Of a DNA stretch of 64,000 nucleotides, positions 17,817 through 31,722 are shown in pieces. This DNA comes from Roseomonas sp. (GTDB lineage: Bacteria; Pseudomonadota; Alphaproteobacteria; Acetobacterales; Acetobacteraceae). Every line of letters begins with the position of its first letter. Within the stretch, counting starts at the first letter, position 1. Below the pieces are notes generated by a model. That model was given only the letters and a program-made list of their open reading frames with translations, was not told where the DNA came from and searched no databases. Location of the stretch: assembly GCA_020249145.1 (NCBI GenBank), contig JADCGF010000011.1:75012-139011 (forward strand), in the 5' to 3' direction. The position numbers and the translations under genes were made by a program.

Positions 17817-18800
17817 TCAGCTTTGCAGCCTGATCCCTGAATCCCTGATCACGCGCGCCCATTTGGCGATGTCATCAGCAATCCTGGCACGCATCTGTTC
17901 GCTATCGCCATCCACAATATCAAGGCCAAACCCTGTAAAGCGCTGGCGCATGGCGGGGTCCGCCAGAACGGCCCGCGATGTCGCCTGTACGCGATTCAGG
18001 ATTGGTTGCGGCGTACCGGCCGGCGCCATGGTGCCGAACCAGGAACTCGCTTCAAAGCCGGGGAAGCCTTGATCCACCAGCGTTGGTATTTCCGGCGCAT
18101 TGGCCGAACGTGCCAAGGTGGTGATGCCAAGCCCGCGCAATTGGCCATCGCGCACCATGGGAAGCACGGCGCCGATATTCTGGATGCCAAGCTGGACACT
18201 GCCATTCAGCACGTCGGCCATATTCGCGCCGCGATAGGGAATGTGTTCCATCTTGATGCCGGCCTGGCTGCAGAACATCTCACCAGCAGCATGCTGCGGC
18301 GTACCGACGCCCGGCGTGCCATAGGATACCTTGCCGGGATTGGCGCGGGCGTAAGCGACCAATTCCTGGATCGTGCGCGGCGGAAAATCGCGGTTCGACA
18401 CAAAAAGCGATGGCATGGCGAAGGCAAGGTGGATCGGTGCCAGATCCTTCACGGGATCAAAAGGCAGGCGCTGCAGGTTTGGCAGAAGGGTCAGCGCAGC
18501 GCTTGCCGCCCACATCAGCGTATAGCCATCCGGCGCTGATTTCGCGACACGATCAACGCCAATGGCGCCAGAATTGCCGGCGACATTCTCAACAACGACC
18601 GGCTGGCCCCAGGCTTCAGAAAATCTTTGCGCGAAAATACGCCCCGTCACATCCGTGGCGCTGCCGGCGGTGAAACCAACAATCAGCCGCACCGGGCGAT
18701 CCGGCCAATTGGTTTGCGCCAAGGCGCCAGCCGAAGCGCTGACGCCAACAAGTCCGATGCCACCCAGAAATACCCGGCGCCGCAAAAGCGATGCTGTCAT
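17817..18800 (-). CDS. Bug/TctC tripartite tricarboxylate transporter substrate-binding protein
   Basis: Tat-like RRRVF signal, WPDRPVRLIVGFTAG, APDGYTL, HIPYRG, PTLVDQG. Confidence 0.9.
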   Translation of the reverse strand: MTASLLRRRVFLGGIGLVGVSASAGALAQTNWPDRPVRLIVGFTAGSATDVTGRIFAQRFSEAWGQPVVVENVAGNSGAIGVDRVAKSAPDGYTLMWAASAALTLLPNLQRLPFDPVKDLAPIHLAFAMPSLFVSNRDFPPRTIQELVAYARANPGKVSYGTPGVGTPQHAAGEMFCSQAGIKMEHIPYRGANMADVLNGSVQLGIQNIGAVLPMVRDGQLRGLGITTLARSANAPEIPTLVDQGFPGFEASSWFGTMAPAGTPQPILNRVQATSRAVLADPAMRQRFTGFGLDIVDGDSEQMRARIADDIAKWARVIRDSGIRLQS

Positions 18801-18920
18801 GAAACCCTCTCCCGTTGGTTTTGGTTGTGCCGGTAATCAAACCGCCAGCACTTCAACGGAAGAATACCGCAGGGGCAGCGCCGCCGTCCATGCGTATATG
18901 AAGGCCAGCGCCCGAGTGTT

Positions 18921-19532
18921 TCAGGCCGATACCTGCCGCACCAGATCCCGCTTGGCGAGCGCCGCCCCCGCCGCCCAGGCCGGCACCAGCGGGCGCGATT
19001 TTTCAAACCAAAGGCAGGTTTCCTCGATACCGCGTGCGGGGCACCAGATGCGCCCTTCCCCAAGCGGCCCGAATCCCAGCAGGCGAACAACCGCGAGCGA
19101 GGCTACATTATCCGGCTGCACCGCCGCCCGCAGGCAATCAATATCCATATGCTTGAAGGCGAGTTCGACCGCGACCGGCCCCGCTTCACGCATCAGCCCC
19201 TGGCCTTGATATTGTTCCCCGAGCCAATAGGTCGTCAGCGCCACCCGGTCATCGCCCGGCGGGCAGATCAGGCTGACCCAGCCGCAAATCGCACCATCGG
19301 ATTTCCGTTCCAGTGCCAGCGGCAGGGACCGCCTTTCCGCGGCCGCACCGCGGGCCGAACTGATTTTCTCCTCCGCCATGGGCGAAGAGAATGGCACGGG
19401 CCAGGAGGCCAATCGCTTGCTGATCGCTTCCGTCATCATCTCCGCAATGGCCGGGGCATCGCGACCTTCGACGCAGCGCAACCGAAGGCGAGGCGTTTCT
19501 GCTACGGGAGCAGATGGGAGAAAAACAACCAT
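18921..19532 (-). CDS. GNAT N-acetyltransferase (RimJ/RimL type)
   Basis: ETPRLRLR, YWLGEQYQGQGLMREA, NVASLAVVRLLGF. Confidence 0.85.
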   Translation of the reverse strand: MVVFLPSAPVAETPRLRLRCVEGRDAPAIAEMMTEAISKRLASWPVPFSSPMAEEKISSARGAAAERRSLPLALERKSDGAICGWVSLICPPGDDRVALTTYWLGEQYQGQGLMREAGPVAVELAFKHMDIDCLRAAVQPDNVASLAVVRLLGFGPLGEGRIWCPARGIEETCLWFEKSRPLVPAWAAGAALAKRDLVRQVSA

Positions 19533-19556: not shown

Positions 19557-20897
19557 CTATTTGGCTAGAAAATTTTTTAACCTTTCCGCAGCTTTTCCGC
19601 GAGGTTGATCAAACATCCTCGACAGGGAAAACTTCCCATGATGCACGCGGGCGCGGCGGTGGGAGAATTCCAGAAAGCCGGCCAGCCCATTGCGTCGCCC
19701 GAAGCCAGAATCACCAGATCCACCAAAACCCAAAGCCTGGAAGCCCGCGAATTCCACGGTGCGCCCAGCGATGATGGCGCTGCCCTTGGCGATCCGTGCA
19801 ACCTGATTTTCTTCCTCAGACGTCGCACCAAAAAGGTAGATGGCCAGGGGTGATGGACGGTCTACAACCCAGGCGAGTGCCATCCGAAGCGAATCTTCTT
19901 CACGCATAAGTAGTATCGGGCCGAAGATTTCCTTATGGCAGATTGCCGCTTCGGGCGGGGCTTCCGCCAGCATCAGCGCCATGTGTCGCCCCGGACCGTT
20001 CTCAGCCAGCGGGGTCAGGCTGGCGCCGGCCATCAGGCGTTGAAGCCGGGCAAGCTGGGCGGCATTGATCACGGCGGTCTCAGGCAGGCCGATGCCGCTT
20101 TCGCGGCAGGCTTCGATGAAGGCCTGCTTGCTATGCCCGACCAGCAGCACGGTATCCGGCGCCACGCAGGTCTGCCCTGCATTGAAGGCCTTGCCCGCCA
20201 GAATATCGCGCGCAGCCCGCTTCAAATCCGCCCCCGGCAGCACCAGCACCGGGCATTTGCCGCCAAGTTCCAGCGTCAGCGGCGTTAGATTCGGTGCGGC
20301 GGCGGCCATGATCTTGCGCCCCGTGGCCGTGCTGCCGGTGAAGACCAGATGATTCCAGGGTTGCGCCGCGAAATCCGCACCCACTTCCGCGCCGCCTTGC
20401 ACGCAAAGCGCAATGCCATCGCCCCAGGCATCGCGCAAAACATCGGCAATCAGCGCGGCGGTGCGCGGCAGCGCTTCCGATGGTTTCACACAAACCCGGT
20501 TACCGGCAGCAATGGCATCAATCGCGGGCAGCAGCGCCAATTGCACCGGGTAATTCCAGGGCGCCATGATGCCAATCACGCCTTTGGGGACAAATTCTTC
20601 CCGCGCGCGCGCCGGCCAGAAGGGATAGGGCACGCTCACGCGGCGCGCGCGCGTCCAATGCCACAAATTGCGCCGCGCATAACGCGCCATGTCCGCGACC
20701 AGCAACACATCCGCAAGCAAGGTTTCTATCGGCGCGCGGCCTTCATATTCGGCATCCAGCACCGCCATGATCTCATGCGACCGCGCCATCACGGCGCGCG
20801 CGAGGCCCGCCAGCAGCGCGCGGCGTTGCTTCAAGTTGGGGATACCATCACGCGCTTCGGCGGCGCGCAGCGCAGCAAGGGCTTCGGCAGGGGTCAT
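19557..20897 (-). CDS. Aldehyde dehydrogenase (class 3 like); likely 4,4'-diapolycopene aldehyde dehydrogenase (AldH/CrtNc role)
   Basis: PWNYP, FTGS, LELGGK (catalytic Glu), NAGQTC (catalytic Cys), EIFGP; ATGA overlap with hpnE; role inferred from operon context. Confidence 0.85.
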   Translation of the reverse strand: MTPAEALAALRAAEARDGIPNLKQRRALLAGLARAVMARSHEIMAVLDAEYEGRAPIETLLADVLLVADMARYARRNLWHWTRARRVSVPYPFWPARAREEFVPKGVIGIMAPWNYPVQLALLPAIDAIAAGNRVCVKPSEALPRTAALIADVLRDAWGDGIALCVQGGAEVGADFAAQPWNHLVFTGSTATGRKIMAAAAPNLTPLTLELGGKCPVLVLPGADLKRAARDILAGKAFNAGQTCVAPDTVLLVGHSKQAFIEACRESGIGLPETAVINAAQLARLQRLMAGASLTPLAENGPGRHMALMLAEAPPEAAICHKEIFGPILLMREEDSLRMALAWVVDRPSPLAIYLFGATSEEENQVARIAKGSAIIAGRTVEFAGFQALGFGGSGDSGFGRRNGLAGFLEFSHRRARVHHGKFSLSRMFDQPRGKAAERLKNFLAK

Positions 20898-22120
20898 CGC
20901 GGTAAATCCTTTACCGCAGCCTCACCAGAAAGCACGGCGGCTTCAATGGTGGCGGGCAGGCGCGGCCAGGTCCAATCTCCGGCCAGGACCAGGTTGCGAT
21001 AAACCTGCCGCGGCGGTTGCGGCGGCATGCCCACCGCATGGCGCGGCGTAGCGCGGCGTTCCTTCACCGCGCGCATGGCGGGCGGCGCTTCCGGCCACTC
21101 ACCCGGTAGGCTGAAAGCCTTGGCAGCAGCACGAATTTCCGCCCAAGCACGCGGCGCAAGATCAGGCGCCTGTTCTTCCACTTCCGCATCTGCCGCGCTG
21201 ACCGTGACACTCACCCCACCTGGCCGCACCAGCACCCATTGCGTGAGGCCGCCCAACACCCCGATGAAGCGCACCGGCCCCGCCGTTTCATGCGCGAAAT
21301 GCAGATTGAGGATAGGCGCATGGCGTTCCGGCACGCGGAGTTTTGGGATCAGCCGCGCCACTTCCCAAGGCGGCAGCGCGAGCACAATGGCATCACGGGC
21401 TTCGAGCGCAAGGCTGTCATCACCAAAATGCAGCGCGATGATGCGCCCTTCCGCTTCTGTCATGGCGCGGAGCCTGGCGCCGAAACGAATAGTCGCGCCC
21501 GCCTGTTCCAAAGCGCGCAAGGCGGGCGCAATCAAATCCGGCCCCAGTCCCTCCCGCGCCACAAGCAGCGCACCTGCGCCAGGCCGCCCAAGCCGCCGCA
21601 GCACCACGCCAAGCCGCGCGGAAGAAGCCTCCTGCCCCGGTGTATTCAGTGCTGCCACGGTGAGCGGTTCGATCAGCGCACGATACAGCACGGGATGCGC
21701 CGCCATGGCTTCCGCGACAGGCCGATCCCCAATCGGCAGAGCAAGGCGCAGCAGCGCGGCGATGGCGCCCGCACTCAAGCCCGGCGGGCGTTTGTCAGGG
21801 TCGCGCCAGGCGAGTGGGCTGGCGGCGATGCGCCTCGCGCTGCCATCAGCCAAATCGAAAACCGGCAGGCCTTCCGGTTCGGCTTCCACCCAGCCCTCAC
21901 GCGCGCCGATATCCGTAAGGAAGCGCAAAGCAGCGCGGTTGGCGCCCATCAGCGCATGGGTGCCGTTATCCGTGCCATCCGGTAGCGCGCGGCAGCGCCC
22001 GCCGGCGACGGGTGTCGCTTCATGCAGCGTCACCCGGCGCCCGGATTGTGCCAGACGCAAGGCAGCCACGAGCCCCGCAACCCCGGCGCCAATGACATGA
22101 CAGGTAGCGTTCTGGCTCAC
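20894..22120 (-). CDS. hpnE: Hydroxysqualene dehydroxylase
   Basis: VIGAGVAGL, GGRCR, DNGTHALMGAN, KERRAT, LAGDWT..LPATIEAAVLSG. Confidence 0.85.
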   Translation of the reverse strand: MSQNATCHVIGAGVAGLVAALRLAQSGRRVTLHEATPVAGGRCRALPDGTDNGTHALMGANRAALRFLTDIGAREGWVEAEPEGLPVFDLADGSARRIAASPLAWRDPDKRPPGLSAGAIAALLRLALPIGDRPVAEAMAAHPVLYRALIEPLTVAALNTPGQEASSARLGVVLRRLGRPGAGALLVAREGLGPDLIAPALRALEQAGATIRFGARLRAMTEAEGRIIALHFGDDSLALEARDAIVLALPPWEVARLIPKLRVPERHAPILNLHFAHETAGPVRFIGVLGGLTQWVLVRPGGVSVTVSAADAEVEEQAPDLAPRAWAEIRAAAKAFSLPGEWPEAPPAMRAVKERRATPRHAVGMPPQPPRQVYRNLVLAGDWTWPRLPATIEAAVLSGEAAVKDLPR

Positions 22121-23778
22121 GCGCGGCTGGGGCTTGCTTGCGGCATGGGCATGACCCCCATGGCATAGGCCGCCATGCGGAGCTTTTCGCCGCGCGTCAG
22201 GCGGGGGCGTGGCCGAGGCAGGCCGAAGCCGCGCGCCATCAGGCGTTCAAACAACCGCTGATAACCCCACATCATGATACGCGCCGGCAAAAGGGCGCGT
22301 TGATCCAGATGCCGCAGTTCCGCTGCCGCTTGTGCAAAGCCTGCCTCTGCCTGCTGCGCCAAATGCGCCGCGGCGCGGGCAAATCCTGGGCTTGCAATCA
22401 GCGTTGTGGCCGGTGCGTCAGCCACACCTTCAGCGGCCAGCAGATCAAGCGGCAGATAGACGCGGTCGCGCAGTGCATCCTCATCCAGATCGCGCAGAAT
22501 ATTCACCAATTGCAGCGTGCGCCCCAAGCCAAGACCGAAATCAGCCGCTTCCGGCGCGCCAAAAATCCGCACCGCCATGGCGCCGACGCTACCTGCGACC
22601 CGGCGGCAATAAAGGTTCAGCGCTTCGGTATCAGCGATCCGCAGGCTTGGCGTGGAATCGGTTTCCATCCCCGCGATCATCGCTTCGCATTCCTGGATCG
22701 GTAGCGCGAAGTTCGCGCGCGCCAGCGCCAATTCACGCGAAAGCGCACAATCGGGCGCACGCAGCTTGCCGCGCCAATCGGCCAGGAAGCGGCGCTTTTC
22801 GGCTTCCGGCATTGCGCCATCAGCAATGTCATCCACCGCACGGCAAAAAGCATATACCGCCCAAAGCGCGCGACGCCTTTCGCCCTTCAGCGCCGACATG
22901 CCGCGCGCAAAGGAAGACCCCGCGCGCCCAACCCGCGCACTGACCAAAGCCGCGTCGCTTGGCCCGGTGCCGAGTGCAGCGCGAAAGCCATGCAGGAAAT
23001 CAAGGCGCGATAGGGCCACCCGCCCCAGAACCGGATCCGCCGCGCGCAGCCGCGCCAGCAGCCGCCGCGCGAGTGCGATGGTGACTGCGCTTTCGCGTGC
23101 CAGGCGCTTGGCCGAGAGCAACCGCGGCAAAGCAGCGGCGGCATCCAGCCTTTCCTCCACCTGATCCAGCGCAGCGTCCAGCACTGCGCGCCGCGCCTCG
23201 GTATTGGTGGGATCGAAGAAGCGCGCCTCACCCCCGGCCAAATCCATCCAGGCTTCCGGCAGATAAACGCGCCCGATATCGCGCCGATCCGGCACCAGAT
23301 CCTGCATATGGTTCAAGATTTGCAGCGCGGTACAAAGCGCATCCGCTGCTGCGATGGCCGCCGGCATCGCCTCATCATGTAAGCGCAGCAACATGCGTCC
23401 GACAGGATTGGCTGACCGTGCGCAGTAATCTTCCAAAGCCGCCCAATCGGCATACCGCGCCTGCGTTGCATCCTGCCGAAAGGCGGAGAGCATCAGCCGC
23501 GCTTCTGCCGTGCCACTGCCCGCGCGATGCAGCCCGATGGCGGCGGGTTCATCCGTGGCGGGATCATCAAGTGCTGCTTCAAGAACTGCCAAGCGCCGCA
23601 GCTTTTCATCCGGGCTCAGTGCTGGATCATCGGCGATATCATCCGCAGTGCGCACAAAGCGATAAAAGCCCAGCACCTTTGGGCGAATTTCCGGCGCCAG
23701 TAGCCGGGACGCGACAGGGAAATTCTCAGACCCCGCGTCACGTGTTGGCGCGCGGGAAGCAGCGCTTTCAGCAATCAT
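22117..23778 (-). CDS. hpnC-hpnD: Fused squalene synthase HpnC (N-terminal) and presqualene diphosphate synthase HpnD (C-terminal)
   Basis: N-half ENFPVAS...RTADDIADD...QILNHMQD; C-half GSSFARGM...AFCRAVDDIAD...QLVNILRDLDED; one 553-aa ORF. Confidence 0.88.
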   Translation of the reverse strand: MIAESAASRAPTRDAGSENFPVASRLLAPEIRPKVLGFYRFVRTADDIADDPALSPDEKLRRLAVLEAALDDPATDEPAAIGLHRAGSGTAEARLMLSAFRQDATQARYADWAALEDYCARSANPVGRMLLRLHDEAMPAAIAAADALCTALQILNHMQDLVPDRRDIGRVYLPEAWMDLAGGEARFFDPTNTEARRAVLDAALDQVEERLDAAAALPRLLSAKRLARESAVTIALARRLLARLRAADPVLGRVALSRLDFLHGFRAALGTGPSDAALVSARVGRAGSSFARGMSALKGERRRALWAVYAFCRAVDDIADGAMPEAEKRRFLADWRGKLRAPDCALSRELALARANFALPIQECEAMIAGMETDSTPSLRIADTEALNLYCRRVAGSVGAMAVRIFGAPEAADFGLGLGRTLQLVNILRDLDEDALRDRVYLPLDLLAAEGVADAPATTLIASPGFARAAAHLAQQAEAGFAQAAAELRHLDQRALLPARIMMWGYQRLFERLMARGFGLPRPRPRLTRGEKLRMAAYAMGVMPMPQASPSRA

Positions 23779-24878
23779 GCCGTGCCGCTGGCGGAATAGG
23801 CGCGGCCCTTCCAGCCGGCGGGGCGGCCAATCAACACGCGCACCAGCGCAGTCCATTGAATGGCGAGCCCAACCAATACGGCCAAGGGATGCAGCGGCAC
23901 TGTCCACCAGGCTTCACGCGTTTTGAAGGTAATGACGGCGCGCAACCCGAACACCAGCAGGATGGCAAGCGCTGCCTGCCATTCCGGCAGCAGAAAGAAG
24001 GGCCAGATATGCGCACCGGCCAGAAGCGTGGTCCAGATCGGCAGGCCCACCGGCGTCGCCATGCCTTCATGCGCATTCTTGATGAAGCCGTTCCAACTGG
24101 CGCGAAAGCCATCATACATCCGGCATTCCGCGAGGGCGACACCTTCCACCATTTCGGTACGAAAACCGGCGCCGCGCAGCTTGCGCGAAAGCTGCAAGCC
24201 ATCATGCAGCGACCCCCGGATTGCCCCATGCCCACCAAGGGTTTCGTAAGCGCCACGTTCAAACAGAATCAATTGCCCGCAAGCCGCGCCAAGCTCCGCA
24301 CGTTCAGTCTCGGCCCGTCCGCCGCCGGGCAGATAGCCGATCAGCAGCAGATTTATCATGGGCACCGTGAGTGCTTCACCCAATGAGCCAATGATCTGGC
24401 GCGGCACGCCTGTCACCATCGCCAGTTTCTGCCGCGCGGCATGGCCACACATCGCCGAAGCGGCATCACGCGCCAGGCGCACATCCGCATCTATGAACAG
24501 GAAATGCGTCCCGCGCGCCGCTTCCGCCAGCCGAGCGCAGGCGTGCACCTTACCGGTCCAGCCCTGCGGCAATGGTGGGCAAGCCAGCAGGCGCACCCGC
24601 GCATCCCGCGCGGCATAGGCGCCGACAATCGCTGCCGTGCGATCGGTTGACCCATCATCCATCACCAGCACTTCAATCGCGACACCCTGTTGCGCCAGCG
24701 CGGCATCAAGGCAGGCGCTGATGTGTGCTTCTTCGTTCCGCGCCGGTATCAGGATGGAAACCAGCGCATCCTTGGGCGCCGGCCCGCGCGCCTTGGCCAT
24801 GCGGCGCAGGTTATCAATCGCGAAACCCACAGGAAACAGCGCCAGGGCAAGCGCAATCCAGGGCAGGAATTCTGTCAT
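23775..24878 (-). CDS. GT2 glycosyltransferase (CrtQ-like carotenoid acid glycosyltransferase)
   Basis: SILIPARNEE, DDGSTD, GWTGK..AC, FIDAD, ACGQ, CRMY. Confidence 0.85.
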   Translation of the reverse strand: MTEFLPWIALALALFPVGFAIDNLRRMAKARGPAPKDALVSILIPARNEEAHISACLDAALAQQGVAIEVLVMDDGSTDRTAAIVGAYAARDARVRLLACPPLPQGWTGKVHACARLAEAARGTHFLFIDADVRLARDAASAMCGHAARQKLAMVTGVPRQIIGSLGEALTVPMINLLLIGYLPGGGRAETERAELGAACGQLILFERGAYETLGGHGAIRGSLHDGLQLSRKLRGAGFRTEMVEGVALAECRMYDGFRASWNGFIKNAHEGMATPVGLPIWTTLLAGAHIWPFFLLPEWQAALAILLVFGLRAVITFKTREAWWTVPLHPLAVLVGLAIQWTALVRVLIGRPAGWKGRAYSASGTA

Positions 24879-25693
24879 GGCGCAGTCTCCGCGCGTTGTT
24901 CATGTCGGGGGTCGAAGCGTTCGCCGCGCAGCAGCGCCTTGGCGCGGCGCCAGGCTTGATAAATGCCGCCCATGCCTTCGCGGCCCTGCACCAGGGTTTG
25001 AAAGGCGGCAGGATCACGCGCAATGGCATCCGTGCTGAGCTTTTCCATCACGCCCGCCAAAGCGTCAGACAGCATTGCGCTGCGGGCTTCACGCGGCGCT
25101 GCCAGCAGCGTCGCAGCCGGGATCGGCGCGCCGAAAGCAGCCAGCATTTCCGCCTTGCGCTCACTCCAGAAGGGATAATCCAGCGCAAGCGGCACAAACA
25201 CCGCATCAGGCGCGATTTCCGGCAGGCGGATCATGCCGGGCGCAATCGGCACGGGCCTTTCGCGCGCGTCGCTGAATCGCCCCGGCGCATTGATCCAGAG
25301 GATATGCGCAGGATTCGCCAAAACCTTTTCCACCACACGCAAAAACGCCACGGAACCGCGCGCCGATCCGGTTTCAATGCCAAATACGCCAAGTCGCTTC
25401 ATGAAGCGATATTTTTCGAGCGCCGCCGCATCCATCGGCGTGAACAAAGGCCGCTGCGGCAAAAGCCGGCGATAGAGCAGCATGAACGCCACGCCATCCC
25501 ACCAGGACGGATGATTGGCGAAAATCACCACGGGCTTGCCTGCCGGCAATTCAGGCAGGCCCCAGCGCGTCACGCGCAGCGCGCGCATATGCTTGGCGAA
25601 GAAACGCGTGAACATGAAATCGAAAAAATCCAGATGGCGCGCAGAACGCAGCGCCACCGGGTCAGGCACTTGTTTTGCCTGGCCTGTCGTCAT
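24875..25693 (-). CDS. Lysophospholipid acyltransferase (PlsC-like) family protein; probable glycosyl-carotenoid acyltransferase
   Basis: FANHPSWWDG (HxxxxD), WINAPG, PLALDYPFW. Confidence 0.8.
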   Translation of the reverse strand: MTTGQAKQVPDPVALRSARHLDFFDFMFTRFFAKHMRALRVTRWGLPELPAGKPVVIFANHPSWWDGVAFMLLYRRLLPQRPLFTPMDAAALEKYRFMKRLGVFGIETGSARGSVAFLRVVEKVLANPAHILWINAPGRFSDARERPVPIAPGMIRLPEIAPDAVFVPLALDYPFWSERKAEMLAAFGAPIPAATLLAAPREARSAMLSDALAGVMEKLSTDAIARDPAAFQTLVQGREGMGGIYQAWRRAKALLRGERFDPRHEQRAETAP

Positions 25694-27276
25694 TCCGCCG
25701 CGGCTGGCAGATCGGCCTCTCGCCGGCCGGCCAATTCAGCTTCGGGCGACATGCCGCGCCCGCCAAGATCACGGTCCAAAGCATCGGCCGCGATCCAGCC
25801 GGACATCATCACCATGGGCATGCCAGGGCCGGGATGCGCCGCACCGCCGGCCAGATAAAGCCCCTTGATCGCCTTGCTGCGATTGCTCGGCTTGAAGGCG
25901 CCGGTGAAGGAACCATGCGATGCCAGGCCATAAATCGCGCCATTCAACACCTTGTAGCGGTTATGGATATCCACCGGCGTCAATTGGCTTTCGCAGACAA
26001 TGCGGCTTTCGATGTCTTCCATCCCCGCAGTGCGCTTCAGCTTATCCAGGATTTTCTGGCGATAGGCCGGGAACATTTTCGACCAATCATGATGCGGGCG
26101 CAGATAGGGCGTGTGTACCAGCACATAAAGCGCTTCCCCACCTTCCGGCGCGACCGAAGGATCAGTGCACGATGGCGCGGCGAGATACGCAGTCGGGTCC
26201 GGCGCCGGTTCGCCCTTGCGATAGATGGCATCGAATTCTTCTTCCGCATCGCGGGAGAAGACGAAATCATGATGCGCCAAATGTTCGTAACGGCGATTGA
26301 GCCCGAGATAGAGCACAATACCGGAACAGGCGGGTTCATACTTCTTGGCGTAGCGCTGAGACGCATTGCCCTTCACCAATTCCGTATAGGTGCGGATCGC
26401 ATCCATGTTCGAAATCAGCGCATCGCAGGCAATGCGTTCGCCATTGGTCGTGACACTGCGCACCGCACCATTCACGATTTCAATATCCGTCACTTCGGCA
26501 TTGGTACGCAAATCAGCGCCCAGCGACGCGGCAAGATTGGCAAGCCCTTCCGCCGTGGCGCGCGTGCCACCTACGGGGTACCAGACACCTTCGGATGCCT
26601 GCATATCGCCAATGCTGCACAGCACCGCCGGCGCCAGATAGGGGCTCGATCCGACATATTGCGTGAAGTGATCCAGCATCTGCGCCAATTGCTCATTCGG
26701 CACATGGCCGCGAATCACCTTCGCCACCGTCTGGCCCATGCGCAGCGCCATCACATCGCGAAGCACATCAGGCTTGAAGTTGTCGCCAAGATTCAGCGTA
26801 TCGCCGATGCCTTCCACGGGCTTCCAGAAGAAGAATTTCTCGGAAACCTTGTGCAAATGGCGGGCCACGCGCTGGAATCGTTCATACCCCGCGCCATTCG
26901 GCCCGCCGGGAGCGAATTCATCCATCAGCCGTGCCATATCCTGCACGTTTTCGATCAGATCAATCTGCTTGCTGCCATCAAAAAAGCAGCGCCATTGCGG
27001 ATCAAGCCGGATCAGCGGCATTTCCTTTTGCTGATCGCGCCCCGCTTCGGCGAAGATGCGGCGCAGCACGCGCGGCACGGTCAGGATGGTGGGGCCCATA
27101 TCGAAGCGGAAATTCCCGCGCCCATCCGGCGATGGCATGCTCAGCACCGCCGCCTTGCCGCCCAGCCAGGAATTACGCTCAAGGACCGTGACCTGATGCC
27201 CACGCGCCTGCGCGGTGGCGGCGGCTGCAAGCCCACCCAAACCGCTGCCGATGACAACTACCTTGGCACCCATCAC
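25690..27276 (-). CDS. crtP: Phytoene desaturase family protein; probable diapolycopene oxygenase (CrtP/CrtNb)
   Basis: GSGLGGL, FDMGPTILT, GVWYPVGG, YGLASHG, GGAAHPGPGMPMVMMSG; second CrtI-family paralog in the operon. Confidence 0.75.
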   Translation of the reverse strand: MMGAKVVVIGSGLGGLAAAATAQARGHQVTVLERNSWLGGKAAVLSMPSPDGRGNFRFDMGPTILTVPRVLRRIFAEAGRDQQKEMPLIRLDPQWRCFFDGSKQIDLIENVQDMARLMDEFAPGGPNGAGYERFQRVARHLHKVSEKFFFWKPVEGIGDTLNLGDNFKPDVLRDVMALRMGQTVAKVIRGHVPNEQLAQMLDHFTQYVGSSPYLAPAVLCSIGDMQASEGVWYPVGGTRATAEGLANLAASLGADLRTNAEVTDIEIVNGAVRSVTTNGERIACDALISNMDAIRTYTELVKGNASQRYAKKYEPACSGIVLYLGLNRRYEHLAHHDFVFSRDAEEEFDAIYRKGEPAPDPTAYLAAPSCTDPSVAPEGGEALYVLVHTPYLRPHHDWSKMFPAYRQKILDKLKRTAGMEDIESRIVCESQLTPVDIHNRYKVLNGAIYGLASHGSFTGAFKPSNRSKAIKGLYLAGGAAHPGPGMPMVMMSGWIAADALDRDLGGRGMSPEAELAGRREADLPAAAE

Positions 27277-27288
27277 GCCGTCTCCTTC

Positions 27289-28860
27289 TCACTCACCAGC
27301 TACAGGCGCGCTGGCCCGCATGTGGCGTGGACTGCGCTCACTGCGCGCCATACCCAAATCCTGCAATAACAAATCGGTGCTGATGCGCGCACCTTCGTAA
27401 ATCACCGGTAGCCCACTGCCCGGATGCGTGCCGCCGCCCACCAGATACACGCCCCGCGCCTTACCGAAGCGATTGCGCGGGCGGAAATGCATCATCTGGC
27501 GCACATTATGCGCAAGATTGAAGGTCGCCCCATAGCCAACCGCATATTCATCTTGCCAGCCTTGGGGCGAGAGGATTTTCTCGTACCGAATGCGGCTTTC
27601 GATATCATGCAGGCCCAGCGCTTTCAGCCTATCCAAAGCAAGTCGCCGATAGCGCGGCGCTTCTGCCGCCCAATCAGCGCCGCCCAGCAAATTCGGCACC
27701 GGCACCAACATATAAAGCGTGGAATGCCCAGGCGGGGCCAGAGACGGATCAGTCCCTGCCGCCGCTTGCACATAAAGCGATGGATTTTGCGGAATAATGC
27801 CGGATTCGATTTGTGCGAGATTATTCTCGTAATCTTCGGCCAGCAGAACCGAGTGATGCGCCAGATCAAGTGGCCCTTCAATGCCAAGATAAAGCATGAA
27901 GGTGGAACAGGAATATCGCGCCTCGGCGATTTTCTTATCTGGCCATTGCGGGCGCTGTTCTTCTTCCATCAGCCCCGGAATGGCGTGCGCGAAATCGGCA
28001 TTCACCACCACCGCATCCGCGGCATGAAGCCGCCCGCCCGCTTCAACACCAACGGCGCGCCGGCCTTCAAAGACAATGCGATCAACCTTGGTGTTCAGGC
28101 GGATATCCACGCCCACACTCTCGGCCACCCGGGCCATGGCTTCCGATATCACGCCGCACCCGCCGCGCGGGTGAAACACGCCATGTTCATATTCCAGGAA
28201 GGACAGGATGGAGAACATGCTCGGGCAACGAAACGGACTCATGCCCAGGTATTTGGACTGGAAGGAAAACGCCAAGCGCGTGCGCGGATCGGAGAAGTGT
28301 CTTTGCAATTCCTGATCCAGCGAAAGCCAGGGCCGCAGATGCTTGAGCCCATTCATCACTTCCGGCGCCAGATAAGTCATCACGCCATGAAAGGGCCGTT
28401 CCAACACGGGGCGGAAGGCTTCCAGCTTCACGCGGTTTTCCGCCATGAAGCTGCGTACCCCCGCGGCATCGGCTGGGTTGATCTTCGCCACTTCCGCTTC
28501 CATGCGCGCCAGATCGGGCGTCGCTTCAATGGAAACAGGATTGGCGCCTTCAAAAATCAGCCGATACTGCGGATCAAGGCGGATCAAATCCACCTCATCC
28601 TCAAGCCGTGCGCCGCAGGCTTCGAAGATTTCCGCCAGGATGCGCGGATACAGGAAGAAGGTCGGCCCAATATCAAAGCGGTAGCCGCCAGGCGCCGTTA
28701 CGGTGCGGGTGCGCCCGCCTACCACGGCATCCTTTTCGAATACCGTGACGCGCACGCCTGAGGAGGCCAGCAGCATGGCCGCGGCCAAGCCTCCGGGGCC
28801 GGCGCCGATTACGGCGACATGGGGGCGAGTTTGTGAGAGCGAGGGAGGTGATGCGTTCAT
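27289..28860 (-). CDS. crtN: Phytoene desaturase family protein; probable 4,4'-diapophytoene desaturase (CrtN)
   Basis: GAGPGGL, FDIGPTFF, SFQSKYLGMSP, GGGTHPGSGLPVI. Confidence 0.8.
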   Translation of the reverse strand: MNASPPSLSQTRPHVAVIGAGPGGLAAAMLLASSGVRVTVFEKDAVVGGRTRTVTAPGGYRFDIGPTFFLYPRILAEIFEACGARLEDEVDLIRLDPQYRLIFEGANPVSIEATPDLARMEAEVAKINPADAAGVRSFMAENRVKLEAFRPVLERPFHGVMTYLAPEVMNGLKHLRPWLSLDQELQRHFSDPRTRLAFSFQSKYLGMSPFRCPSMFSILSFLEYEHGVFHPRGGCGVISEAMARVAESVGVDIRLNTKVDRIVFEGRRAVGVEAGGRLHAADAVVVNADFAHAIPGLMEEEQRPQWPDKKIAEARYSCSTFMLYLGIEGPLDLAHHSVLLAEDYENNLAQIESGIIPQNPSLYVQAAAGTDPSLAPPGHSTLYMLVPVPNLLGGADWAAEAPRYRRLALDRLKALGLHDIESRIRYEKILSPQGWQDEYAVGYGATFNLAHNVRQMMHFRPRNRFGKARGVYLVGGGTHPGSGLPVIYEGARISTDLLLQDLGMARSERSPRHMRASAPVAGE

Positions 28861-28945: not shown

Positions 28946-30565
28946 TCAGGCTGCCATGGCCCCCTCGATTTCCGCGAAGCGCGCCCCAGCGCGCGGAAGA
29001 AGCCTGCGCAGATAGAAATCCGCCACCGCCCCATAAGCCGCGCCATCCGCCGCAGCCGCCCGCGCGAGAAGAGCACCCCCCAGCACCCAGCCCACCGCAT
29101 CCAAATAGGCAGTCGCGAGCGATTGGCTAGCCTCCGCATCGCGGCCTTGCACTTCCAACACCGCCTCCGTGGTCCGGGCCAGCCCCTCAGCCGCGGCGCG
29201 CAGCCTGGCATCGGGCAGGGCGGCGATCTCGCTGATGAGGCTCCGCATCTCCGCCCCGCCATCGCGGGCGAGCTTGCGGGTCAGCAGGTCAATGGCCTGG
29301 ATGCCGTTAGTGCCCTCATAAATCGGGGCAATGCGGGCATCGCGCAGCACCTGGGCGGCGCCGGTATCCTCAATAAAGCCCATGCCGCCATGCACCTGCA
29401 CGCCGAGGGACGCGGTTTCCACCCCGCGATCCGTGGCCCAAGCCTTCAGCACCGGGATCAGCAGCGCCAACCGCGTGCTGGCCGCTTTATCGCCCAAAAG
29501 CTCCGCCCTGTCGGCTGCCACTGCCGCTTCCAGCATGATCAGCCGGGCGGCGAGCGTGGTCGCGCGCATTTCCATCAGCATGCGCGCGACATCTGGGTGT
29601 TCCGCGATGCTGCGCCCGCTCTGCACACGCTGCGCGGCATAGGCTTCGGCCAGACGCAGCGCCGCCGCGCCATGCGCCACACCCTGGGTGCCCACGCCAA
29701 GCCTGGCATTGTTCATCATGGCGAACATGGCTTGCAGGCCGCGATGCGGTTCGCCGACCATCTCGGCCTCCGCCCCTTCATACAGCATGATGCAGGTGGG
29801 GCTGCCATGAATGCCCATCTTGCGTTCGATGCCACCGCAGCGGAAGGCATTGCGCGCGCCATCGGGTAGGATTTTCGGCGCGGCGAATAGCGAAATCCCG
29901 CGCGAGCCCGGCGGCGCATCCGGCAGGCGCGCCAGCACCAGATGCAGGATATTGCCGGCGCAATCATGTTCGCCCCAGGTGATGAAAATCTTCTGCCCGT
30001 GCAAGGCATAGCGCCCATTGCCCAGCGGTTCCGCGCGCGTGCGCAGCATGCCCAAATCGCTGCCGGCTTGCGGTTCGGTCAGGCACATCGCGCCGGTCCA
30101 TTCGCCGGCGATCATCGGCGGCAGCCAGCGCGCCGCCTGATCCGGCGTGGCGTGATGCCGCAGCAGATCAATCGCACCCGCCGTCAGCAGCGGGCCGAGC
30201 ATGAAAGACGTATCCGCAGCCATGCCCAATTCCACCATGGCAGTCCAAAGGCTGAGCGGCAGCCCCTGCCCGCCATGTTCCGCCGGTGCGGCCAGTCCCT
30301 GCCAGCCGCCTTCACGCCATTGATCATAAAGCGCTGGGTAATGCGCCGGCGTGGTCACCGTGCCATTGGCGTAGCGGGCACCCTGCTTATCGGCCTCCTG
30401 CGCCTTCGGTTGCAGGGCTTCGGTGCAGAAACGGTTCGCCTCGGTCACGATTTGGGCGATGTCATCGGCGGAAAGCGGCGCGCCGGCGGCATTGGTCAGG
30501 CCCGGCAGGTCAACCAGGCGCGTGAGGCCGAAAATCAGATCATCAGCGGCGGTGGTGTTGCTCAT
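28946..30565 (-). CDS. Acyl-CoA dehydrogenase
   Basis: MCLTEPQAGSD, GQKIFITWG, KMGIHGSPT, MMNNARL, VHGGMG, IYEGTNGIQ. Confidence 0.92.
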   Translation of the reverse strand: MSNTTAADDLIFGLTRLVDLPGLTNAAGAPLSADDIAQIVTEANRFCTEALQPKAQEADKQGARYANGTVTTPAHYPALYDQWREGGWQGLAAPAEHGGQGLPLSLWTAMVELGMAADTSFMLGPLLTAGAIDLLRHHATPDQAARWLPPMIAGEWTGAMCLTEPQAGSDLGMLRTRAEPLGNGRYALHGQKIFITWGEHDCAGNILHLVLARLPDAPPGSRGISLFAAPKILPDGARNAFRCGGIERKMGIHGSPTCIMLYEGAEAEMVGEPHRGLQAMFAMMNNARLGVGTQGVAHGAAALRLAEAYAAQRVQSGRSIAEHPDVARMLMEMRATTLAARLIMLEAAVAADRAELLGDKAASTRLALLIPVLKAWATDRGVETASLGVQVHGGMGFIEDTGAAQVLRDARIAPIYEGTNGIQAIDLLTRKLARDGGAEMRSLISEIAALPDARLRAAAEGLARTTEAVLEVQGRDAEASQSLATAYLDAVGWVLGGALLARAAAADGAAYGAVADFYLRRLLPRAGARFAEIEGAMAA

Positions 30566-31722
30566 GTTGTGATCTCCAATCCGGCCAGCAGGCCAGGTGC
30601 CGGGGCATCACGCCCGGCGGCCCAGCCCGGTAGTGCGCGGGCGAGCGCAGTATCCTCCGCCGCCGCGGCCAGGGCCAGACCTAAAAGCGGGGCGAATTTG
30701 AAGCCATGGCCGGAAAAGCCGGACATGACAAAGCAGGCGGGGGCGGCGGCTTCCAGGATGAATTCCTCCCGGTCTTCCACATCGTAATAGCAGGCCTGGG
30801 CGCCCAGCACGCGATAGCCAGCCGCACCGATCAGGCGCGGGCGGGCGAGGGCCAGGATTTCCTCGATTTCTGCGGGCGTTGCCGCGCGCGGATCCGCCCC
30901 GGCATCGCCCTGGCGGGAAAAGCGGTGATCGCCAATCTTGAGCGCGGTGCCGGCCACTGGCGGTACGGCGTAGAACCCGCCATCCTCGGCCAGATCAAGC
31001 AGCATGGGTGCGGCTTCCCAAGCGGCACGGAAGGCCGGCGGGGCTTCAAGACGCACCAGGATTTGCCGGGACGGCACCACGCGGCCAGTAAGCCGGGTGC
31101 CGAGCAGCCTTGGCCCCCAGGGTCCGGCGGCCAGTACCAGCAGATCAGCGCTGCGTTCCACGCCATTGGTGAGCCACAGCGCCGCACGATCCGGCAGGGC
31201 GGCGGCAACCTCGGCGGCCTCGAACACCACGCCTTGTGTGGCGAGATGCGCGGCGAGCCCGGCGACGATGCGTTCCGCGAGCAGCGCGCCACCGCGCGGC
31301 AAGGTGAAGGCCGCGGCTATGCCGGTATCTGACAGCATGGGAAAGCGCGTGGTGATCTGATCCGGCGACAGGTCAGCACATGCATGCCCATCGGCCCGCA
31401 ATGCAGCACGGCTTTCCGCAAGCCAGCCACCCTGGTGATTGGCGAGTGCCAGCACGCCGGTTTCCACATAATGCCGGGTGCCGAGTGCGGCCCAGATCAT
31501 GTCCCAAGCCGCATAGGCAGGGTCAACCATCCGCATATAGCCAGCCTGCGCGCCATAGGCGTGGCGGATCAGCCGGTGCTGATCCACCGAAGCGCCGCGC
31601 GGATTGGGGATGGGTGCCTGTTCAATCACGCGCACCTGCCAGCCGGCGCGGGCCAGCGCCCAGGCGGTGCAAAGCCCCATGATGCCGGCGCCGAGAATCA
31701 GGGCGTTTCGTTGTGCTGCCAT
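30562..31722 (-). CDS. FAD-dependent oxidoreductase (monomeric sarcosine oxidase-like)
   Basis: GAGIMG, RLIRHAYG, ACYY (covalent-FAD Cys position), GFSGHGFKFAP. Confidence 0.85.
   Translation of the reverse strand: MAAQRNALILGAGIMGLCTAWALARAGWQVRVIEQAPIPNPRGASVDQHRLIRHAYGAQAGYMRMVDPAYAAWDMIWAALGTRHYVETGVLALANHQGGWLAESRAALRADGHACADLSPDQITTRFPMLSDTGIAAAFTLPRGGALLAERIVAGLAAHLATQGVVFEAAEVAAALPDRAALWLTNGVERSADLLVLAAGPWGPRLLGTRLTGRVVPSRQILVRLEAPPAFRAAWEAAPMLLDLAEDGGFYAVPPVAGTALKIGDHRFSRQGDAGADPRAATPAEIEEILALARPRLIGAAGYRVLGAQACYYDVEDREEFILEAAAPACFVMSGFSGHGFKFAPLLGLALAAAAEDTALARALPGWAAGRDAPAPGLLAGLEITT

Follow-up and report, generated by a model that had tools for sequence, protein, structure and literature searches.

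A predicted operon for squalene-route C30 carotenoid synthesis

Can a single bacterial operon carry both the squalene supply and the tailoring steps of a C30 carotenoid? The question is raised by a seven-gene locus in a 64,000-nucleotide stretch of a Roseomonas sp. genome (here referred to as the window; C3:75012-139011 of a 3.83-Mb genome assembled in 52 contigs and 99.9% complete). Searches with Pfam and NCBIfam profiles placed seven minus-strand open reading frames (ORFs) between positions 19557 and 28860: crtN, crtP, an acyltransferase gene, a family 2 glycosyltransferase (GT2) gene, a fused hpnC-hpnD gene (hpnCD), hpnE, and aldH. This is the gene content, strand, and position given in a preliminary description of the same DNA. 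We conclude, with a probability of roughly 80%, that the seven genes form a translationally coupled operon whose product is a C30 carotenoid made by the squalene route. This reading rests on homology to genetically tested systems, from which all of the steps below are predicted.

In the proposed pathway, the HpnD half of the fused protein would convert two molecules of farnesyl diphosphate (FPP) to presqualene diphosphate, the HpnC half would turn this into hydroxysqualene, and HpnE would reduce hydroxysqualene to squalene. CrtN would then desaturate squalene to 4,4'-diapolycopene, and CrtP would oxidize the terminal methyl groups to aldehydes. The aldehyde dehydrogenase (ALDH) encoded by aldH would most likely complete the oxidation to 4,4'-diapolycopenedioic acid, after which the GT2 enzyme would link a sugar to a carboxyl group through an ester bond, and this sugar would receive a fatty acyl chain from the PF01553 acyltransferase. 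The product should be similar to the acyl-glucosyl diapolycopenedioate of Methylobacterium extorquens and would coexist with spirilloxanthin-type C40 carotenoids from a photosynthesis gene cluster elsewhere in the genome. The preliminary description had sketched the same route, from FPP through squalene to CrtN, CrtP, AldH, glycosylation, and acylation, and it fits all of the homology evidence. The genes, with their predicted functions, are as follows (aa, amino acids).

27289 to 28860, minus strand: crtN, squalene/4,4'-diapophytoene desaturase; 523 aa; crtI_fam (TIGR02734), 508 bits
25690 to 27276, minus strand: crtP, 4,4'-diapolycopene oxidase; 528 aa; crtI_fam (TIGR02734), 395 bits
24875 to 25693, minus strand: lysophospholipid-type acyltransferase, predicted to acylate the sugar; 272 aa; PF01553
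23775 to 24878, minus strand: GT2 glycosyltransferase, predicted to form the glycosyl ester; 367 aa; PF00535
22117 to 23778, minus strand: fused hpnC-hpnD; 553 aa; HpnC and HpnD NCBIfam matches
20894 to 22120, minus strand: hpnE, hydroxysqualene dehydroxylase; 408 aa; HpnE is the best NCBIfam match
19557 to 20897, minus strand: aldH, class-3-like aldehyde dehydrogenase; 446 aa; PF00171 (Aldedh), 209 bits
28861 to 28945, minus strand: gap upstream of crtN, the likely promoter region of the operon; 85 bp

Five of the six junctions are 4-bp overlaps (ATGA, ATGA, ATGA, GTGA, and ATGA), all as previously listed; at the sixth, crtN and crtP are 12 bp apart, and the gap contains the ribosome-binding site GAAGGAG. 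Annotation of the corresponding clusters in Microvirga ossetica and Azospirillum brasilense shows the same 4-bp overlaps. Since the overlaps are kept across orders, the coupling is conserved and is no chance feature. The FAD-binding, Asp-rich, HX4D, and DxD motifs and the ALDH Glu/Cys motifs are intact in the operon proteins.

CrtN and CrtP group with C30 enzymes

CrtN has the FAD motif GAGPGG at residue 19 and an MNA start that is conserved in relatives; it is 58.7% identical to CrtN of A. brasilense Sp7 (RS25220) and 63% identical to the M. ossetica homologue. CrtP has the FAD motif GSGLGG at residue 10 and is 61.8% identical to A. brasilense CrtP (RS25215) and 33.6% identical to CrtP of Staphylococcus pasteuri. 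NCBIfam holds no CrtN- or CrtP-specific model, and family scans alone cannot separate C30 from C40 desaturases. We therefore built a maximum-likelihood tree (LG+C20) with labelled references from the A. brasilense Sp7 p3 locus, the S. pasteuri crtOPQMN plasmid, CrtI and CrtD of Roseobacter litoralis, and CrtI of Pantoea ananatis. In this tree, CrtN fell into a clade with A. brasilense CrtN and the Microvirga homologue (support, 100/100), and CrtP into a clade with A. brasilense CrtP (98/99), the link to S. pasteuri CrtP being weak (81/47). Separate clades were formed by CrtI (100/99), comprising the Pantoea and Roseobacter proteins and the CrtI of the genome's own photosynthesis cluster, and by CrtD (100/100), with the photosynthesis-cluster CrtD inside. 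The operon desaturases thus do not show the grouping with CrtI or CrtD that, according to the preliminary description, would have refuted its proposal. The PDB held only CrtI (4dgk) and a CrtD-like structure (4rep), with no C30-specific entry, and a search for homologous proteins returned only matches named generically "phytoene desaturase."

The photosynthesis genes lie on contig C50 (positions 224000 to 243999, locus L013), where pufL, pufM, and pufC accompany crtI, crtD, crtB, a polyprenyl synthase gene, and a CrtF/BchU-like methyltransferase gene. CrtI scored 611 bits, and CrtD scored 688 bits, above its cut-off. From these assignments, a separate C40 carotenoid pathway is encoded in this cluster. 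The statement that there is no crtM or crtB accordingly holds for the operon and, for crtM, genome-wide, but crtB is present on C50. Because crtB, crtI, and crtD lie on another contig, pink colour need not come from the operon alone, and the earlier suggestion that the operon could explain the pink pigmentation of the lineage is not supported if taken to mean this operon alone.

The presence of a C40 pathway raises the alternative that the CrtN- and CrtP-like enzymes use phytoene from the photosynthesis-cluster CrtB to make glycosylated C40 carotenoic acids, the squalene of the hpn genes serving some other purpose. The genome does contain crtE besides crtB, and the substrate range of CrtI-family enzymes cannot be read from sequence, NCBIfam giving only the general crtI_fam assignment. 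Against it, both operon enzymes cluster with the C30 enzymes of A. brasilense rather than with CrtI or CrtD, crtB already has a crtI and a crtD of its own beside it, translational coupling links the hpn genes to the tailoring genes, and the genome lacks a squalene consumer such as a squalene-hopene cyclase (SHC). We consider a C40 role for these enzymes very improbable and retain the assignment of CrtN and CrtP to C30 synthesis from squalene.

The squalene-forming and tailoring enzymes

The N-terminal half of the fused protein (residues 14-268) matches HpnC, hydroxysqualene synthase, with 329 bits (cut-off, 250), and the C-terminal half (residues 284-537) matches HpnD, presqualene diphosphate synthase, with 309 bits (cut-off, 279). 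Its Asp-rich motifs read DDIADD (residue 46), NHMQDLVPD, DDIAD (residue 316), and DLDED (residue 430). HpnE has the FAD motif GAGVAG at residue 11 and is 51% identical to the Microvirga homologue in the same position; it scores 241 bits over model positions 2-426 of 430, under the cut-off of 283, and is about 20 residues shorter than the model.

These features allow a reading in which the fused HpnC-HpnD and a short, divergent HpnE bypass free squalene and supply CrtN directly with dehydrosqualene (4,4'-diapophytoene) or some other intermediate. In addition to the low score and short length of HpnE, a fusion could channel intermediates, and CrtM-type enzymes are described as promiscuous between squalene and dehydrosqualene (PMC10870770). 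Both halves of the fused protein, on the other hand, keep HpnC- and HpnD-type motifs and exceed the equivalog cut-offs; Planctopirus limnophila needs HpnE for its colour (PMC9907078); and squalene accumulates in the crtNPOQ deletion strain of A. brasilense (PMC13274349). Such a bypass therefore seems to us a slim prospect compared with a route through free squalene, as proposed above.

The acyltransferase carries the HX4D motif HPSWWD at residue 61 and is 46% identical to "CrtO" of A. brasilense (RS25210) and 44% identical to the Microvirga acyltransferase; it showed no similarity to CrtO of S. pasteuri. The GT2 enzyme has its DAD motif at residue 130, with identities of 51% to A. brasilense "CrtQ" (RS25205), 56% to the Microvirga protein, and 24% (E value, 2e-23) to CrtQ of S. 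pasteuri. In AldH, the catalytic ELGG (Glu210) and GQTCVAPD (Cys244) motifs are present. AldH is 47% identical to the Microvirga aldH product encoded divergently from crtN but only 31% identical to the crtN-adjacent A. brasilense protein.

Comparison with characterized systems

Genetic evidence for the steps proposed here comes from two alphaproteobacteria. In A. brasilense Sp7, deletion of either hpnCDE or crtNPOQ abolishes the pigment, and the crtNPOQ deletion accumulates squalene (PMC13274349). The Sp7 locus, on plasmid p3, shares with the Roseomonas operon the order crtN-crtP-acyltransferase-GT2, the overlapping junctions, and an adjacent aldH. It differs in that hpnC, hpnD, and hpnE are at a separate locus, its aldH is divergent (and 31% identical, as noted above), and a DUF2141 gene follows the glycosyltransferase gene. 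A report on M. extorquens AM1 gives the product as 4-[2-O-octadecenoyl-glucosyl]-4,4'-diapolycopenedioic acid, with the role of the glycosyltransferase META1p3663 shown by deletion and complementation and that of the acyltransferase META1p3664 by deletion (PMC10448405). The M. extorquens AM1/PA1 cluster (META1p3663-3670), which we compared by gene roles and positions, resembles the operon in its squalene route, CrtN, CrtP, glycosyltransferase, and acyltransferase, META1p3664 holding the position of the operon acyltransferase. Unlike in the operon, hpnCDE lies with shc (META1p1815-1818) and is shared with hopanoid synthesis, and no AldH has been identified. Between them, A. brasilense and M. 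extorquens provide genetics for the squalene-forming, desaturation/oxidation, glycosylation, and acylation steps.

Three further systems can be compared. In P. limnophila, squalene from HpnCDE feeds CrtN (Santana-Molina et al. 2022, PMC9907078), so that both the CrtN substrate and the carotenoic acid products are as expected for the operon; in Planctomycetes, by contrast, the genes are dispersed and shared with hopanoid synthesis, and the available text of that paper describes no fused hpnCD or glycosyl/acyl tailoring operon. The staphyloxanthin operon crtOPQMN has homologous CrtN (30%), CrtP (34%), and CrtQ (24%) and follows the same sequence of desaturation, oxidation, glycosylation, and acylation, but it uses CrtM, which makes dehydrosqualene, in place of HpnCDE, and its CrtO is not homologous to the PF01553 enzyme. 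The hopanoid locus hpnC-hpnD-hpnE-shc, finally, differs in having the squalene-hopene cyclase gene that is absent from both the Roseomonas locus and the rest of the genome.

Another counterpart is a cluster on the 977-kb megaplasmid of M. ossetica V5/3m (NZ_CP016619; locus L094, 204607-214829), a member of a different order (Hyphomicrobiales), where the genes are annotated generically. Its genes run, as in Roseomonas, from crtN through crtP, the acyltransferase, GT2, and fused hpnCD (552 aa) to hpnE, again with 4-bp overlaps. An orthologous aldH (47%) is present but lies upstream and divergent, a S-adenosylmethionine (SAM) methyltransferase gene intervenes between crtN and crtP, and ispH, of the methylerythritol phosphate (MEP) pathway, follows hpnE. 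With ispH, the M. ossetica cluster is an even more "self-supplying" version of the operon.

Squalene synthesis in a genome lacking squalene-hopene cyclase

In hopanoid-type loci, as the preliminary description stated, shc follows hpnCDE: SHC queries found the cyclase gene directly downstream of hpnE in six such loci, which served as a positive control. In the genome of the window, the SHC model TIGR01507 gave zero candidates, and tblastn with the SHCs of L074 and L075 (verified at 758 and 784 bits) gave a best E value of 0.54. A whole-genome scan for PF00494 returned four domains, namely the HpnC half, the HpnD half, CrtB on C50, and a 277-aa protein on contig C2; it revealed no CrtM, no Sqs, and no second hpnCDE. 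The genome-wide search for shc, crtM, and a second hpnCDE suggested earlier has therefore found none of the three. Given that the genome contains neither SHC nor another squalene or dehydrosqualene synthase, its squalene synthesis appears, from gene content, to be dedicated to the operon pigment.

We rejected the 277-aa protein as a hidden CrtM because both of its Asp-rich motifs are missing. This SQS_PSY-family protein (C2:33000-44000, locus L014) is probably noncatalytic and NDUFAF6-like; its gene adjoins those for an Fe/Mn superoxide dismutase and a 1,099-aa LRR-Roc-COR protein with a weak TIR match.

We surveyed 81 genomes of the family (that of the window and G001-G080), 63 of them of high quality. 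SHC was present in 70 and absent from 11 (8 of the 63 high-quality genomes). A CrtN orthologue was found in 31 of the 81 and operon-type fused hpnCD in 13, with one additional partial match in G039. In nine of the 13 genomes with fused hpnCD, one SHC is encoded elsewhere and a second hpnCD is missing; there, the pigment operon is consequently also the source of hopanoid precursors. The four that lack SHC are the genome of the window, G005 of the same genus, G006, and G036. By name, SHC is present in Roseomonas pecuniae, R. indoligenes, Roseicella, Roseomonas sp. CCTCC AB2023176, Roseomonas sp. LUR113, and Microvirga puerhi and missing from both Humitalea genomes and three freshwater Roseomonas assembled genomes. 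It has been stated that all Acetobacteraceae are hopanoid producers (PMC8776678); as far as gene content indicates, the SHC-less genomes of the family contradict this.

The survey bears on a further explanation, that hpnCD-hpnE mainly yields squalene itself or some other lipid derived from squalene, these genes owing their place in a carotenoid operon only to inherited gene order. The nine genomes in which a single-copy fused hpnCD must also feed hopanoids lend it some weight, as does the slightly protective effect of squalene alone against stress in P. limnophila (PMC9907078). It is at odds with the lack of SHC in the genome of the window and its genus, with the location of the hpn genes between the glycosyltransferase gene and aldH with 4-bp overlaps, and with the travel of fused hpnCD together with crt genes onto the Microvirga plasmid. 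We judge this explanation very unlikely, if marginally less so than the other two alternatives, and favour carotenoid synthesis as the main use of the squalene.

Distribution and lateral movement of the fused operon

A tblastn survey of the seven operon proteins against 78 related loci found the same operon in about 50 public Roseomonadaceae loci, with gene order conserved at 54-98% identity across Roseomonadaceae and the Microvirga plasmid. The closest loci, at 90-98% identity, belong to freshwater "Roseomonas sp." genomes from lake and river metagenomes. The host is a freshwater, Roseomonas-like organism and, from the photosynthesis gene cluster on contig C50, a purple-type and probably aerobic anoxygenic phototroph. 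Essentially all freshwater-clade loci have the order crtN-crtP-acyltransferase-GT2-hpnCD-hpnE, and the full order recurs at 54-82% identity in R. pecuniae, R. indoligenes, Roseicella frigidaeris, Humitalea sp., Roseomonas sp. CCTCC AB2023176, and several metagenome-assembled genomes. In two assembled genomes of unclassified Pseudomonadota, crtN-crtP-acyltransferase-glycosyltransferase is divergent from unfused hpnC-hpnD-hpnE. The proximity of hpnCDE to crtN in some alphaproteobacteria has been noted before (Santana-Molina et al. 2022, PMC9907078), and fused hpnCD was reported in 2017 from Acidobacteria, Actinobacteria, and Rhodospirillum centenum (PMC5462960). With about 50 loci, the Microvirga megaplasmid, and these earlier reports, the single-operon layout is neither rare nor unreported, contrary to the initial view that precursor supply and tailoring in one operon are unusual.

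The aldH gene follows hpnE in the clade of the window, Humitalea sp., Roseicella, and some metagenome-assembled genomes. In R. pecuniae, R. indoligenes, and Roseomonas strains L056 and L057, unrelated genes are found there, and in Microvirga aldH is upstream and divergent. The idea that aldH has taken the place of shc is thus not borne out as a demonstrable evolutionary replacement.

By frame analysis, HpnC and HpnD share one frame only in the operon-type loci of Roseomonadaceae, in two Microvirga species, and in L060 (an unclassified alphaproteobacterial assembled genome) and L061 (an unclassified proteobacterial assembled genome). Two genes, hpnC and hpnD, are present in hopanoid-type loci, among them those of Acetobacter, Rhodopila, Acidisphaera, and Stella. 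L064, L071, and L087 have long ORFs where hpnC and hpnD lie, but these were rejected as fusions, as the frames showed separate genes. In a tree of HpnC plus HpnD, the fused proteins of Roseomonadaceae and Microvirga formed a clade (100/99) apart from that of hopanoid-type Acetobacteraceae (100/100), and Microvirga HpnCD, CrtN, and CrtP were each the nearest outgroup to the Roseomonadaceae sequences. Because CrtN and CrtP show the same Microvirga-sister pattern as HpnCD, the fused-hpnCD operon appears, from these phylogenies, to have crossed between Acetobacterales and Hyphomicrobiales as a unit.

In Humitalea rosea (L052, 9364-13619), fused hpnCD-hpnE-GNAT lies apart from the crt genes, with a divergent gene for a BLUF blue-light sensor immediately upstream. 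This adjacency hints at light control of squalene supply in that species.

Neighbouring genes and transcription

The 85-bp gap upstream of crtN contains a weak terminator-like hairpin (28926-28914) downstream of an acyl-CoA dehydrogenase gene. Among relatives the gap ranges from 39 to 202 bp, and its sequence is conserved within the genus only. A scan of the region upstream of crtN for a sigma-70 promoter gave no match, and an alignment of the intergenic regions gave no motif conserved outside the genus.

Metatranscriptome contigs 92-99% identical to this region were found in four river and lake assemblies, with crtP, crtN, and the acyl-CoA dehydrogenase gene upstream of them covered best; the contigs over operon genes come from relatives with about 92-95% identity. 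Individual contigs span the crtP/acyltransferase junction (25598-27048) and the hpnE/aldH junction (20768-21003), and in these four assemblies none crosses the 85-bp gap. This coverage is consistent with a transcript starting upstream of crtN and lends weak support to expression of the operon by this lineage in nature.

Upstream of the gap, at 28946-31722 on the minus strand, the acyl-CoA dehydrogenase gene (539 aa, with a PF12806 C-terminal domain) overlaps by 4 bp a gene for a flavoprotein resembling sarcosine/N-methyltryptophan oxidases (386 aa). The pair lies directly 5' of crtN in nearly all Roseomonadaceae loci (56-99% identity), though not in Microvirga or Azospirillum, and has no evident link to the pigment pathway. 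Downstream (17817-19532, minus strand), the aldH stop codon is separated by 24 bp from the start of a GNAT acetyltransferase gene, after which comes a gene for a TctC-family solute receptor. A GNAT gene also follows hpnE or aldH in Humitalea and one assembled genome, and the one here could be co-transcribed with the operon.

Weight of the evidence

Several points weigh against the assignment of the locus to squalene-route C30 synthesis. Sequence does not reveal the chain length of the CrtN substrate, and CrtB provides phytoene as well. HpnE, at 241 bits, falls under its family cut-off. AldH most likely converts the diapolycopene dialdehyde to the dioic acid, a role assigned from gene context only; the gene is absent from the operon in several Roseomonas species, and in M. 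extorquens the pigment was unchanged after deletion of two candidate ALDH genes (PMC10448405). The metatranscriptome contigs derive from relatives rather than from this strain, and carry-over of DNA is possible. Our literature search found no paper on Roseomonas carotenoid chemistry. Roseococcus thiosulfatophilus makes C30 carotenoid-dioate glucosyl esters, as reportedly described by Yurkov and colleagues in 1993.

Significance

Both the pathway type and the gene layout have been described in related bacteria, and the operon of the window is a clean further example. Its novelty is modest and lies in a predicted dedicated squalene supply without shc and in the evidence that the fused operon is laterally mobile. 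The biology being largely known, its value is practical and incremental. Because the 9.3-kb operon encodes every predicted step from FPP to the decorated pigment, it would be convenient for producing C30 carotenoids in a heterologous host. For the oxidation step left unassigned in M. extorquens, the clustered aldH, whose Microvirga orthologue adjoins crtN, offers a concrete candidate. SHC-less genomes such as this one also keep "squalene synthase" genes, which are interpreted as hopanoid clusters in antiSMASH-style surveys.

We also offer a scenario that is speculative and, taken in its entirety, rather unlikely. In it, the fused-hpnCD operon would be a self-sufficient, laterally mobile module leading from FPP to pigment that moved between Acetobacterales and Hyphomicrobiales, on a megaplasmid in the latter, and became the only squalene source of its hosts, after which Humitalea and the freshwater genus would have lost hopanoids. 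In an aerobic phototroph, the role of hopanoids as membrane-ordering, photoprotective lipids would thereby fall to the acylated C30 carotenoid, and aldH would encode the dialdehyde dehydrogenase that has long been missing from the proteobacterial pathway. The operon itself appears to exemplify the capture of precursor-supply genes by a pigment operon, followed by their transfer between orders.

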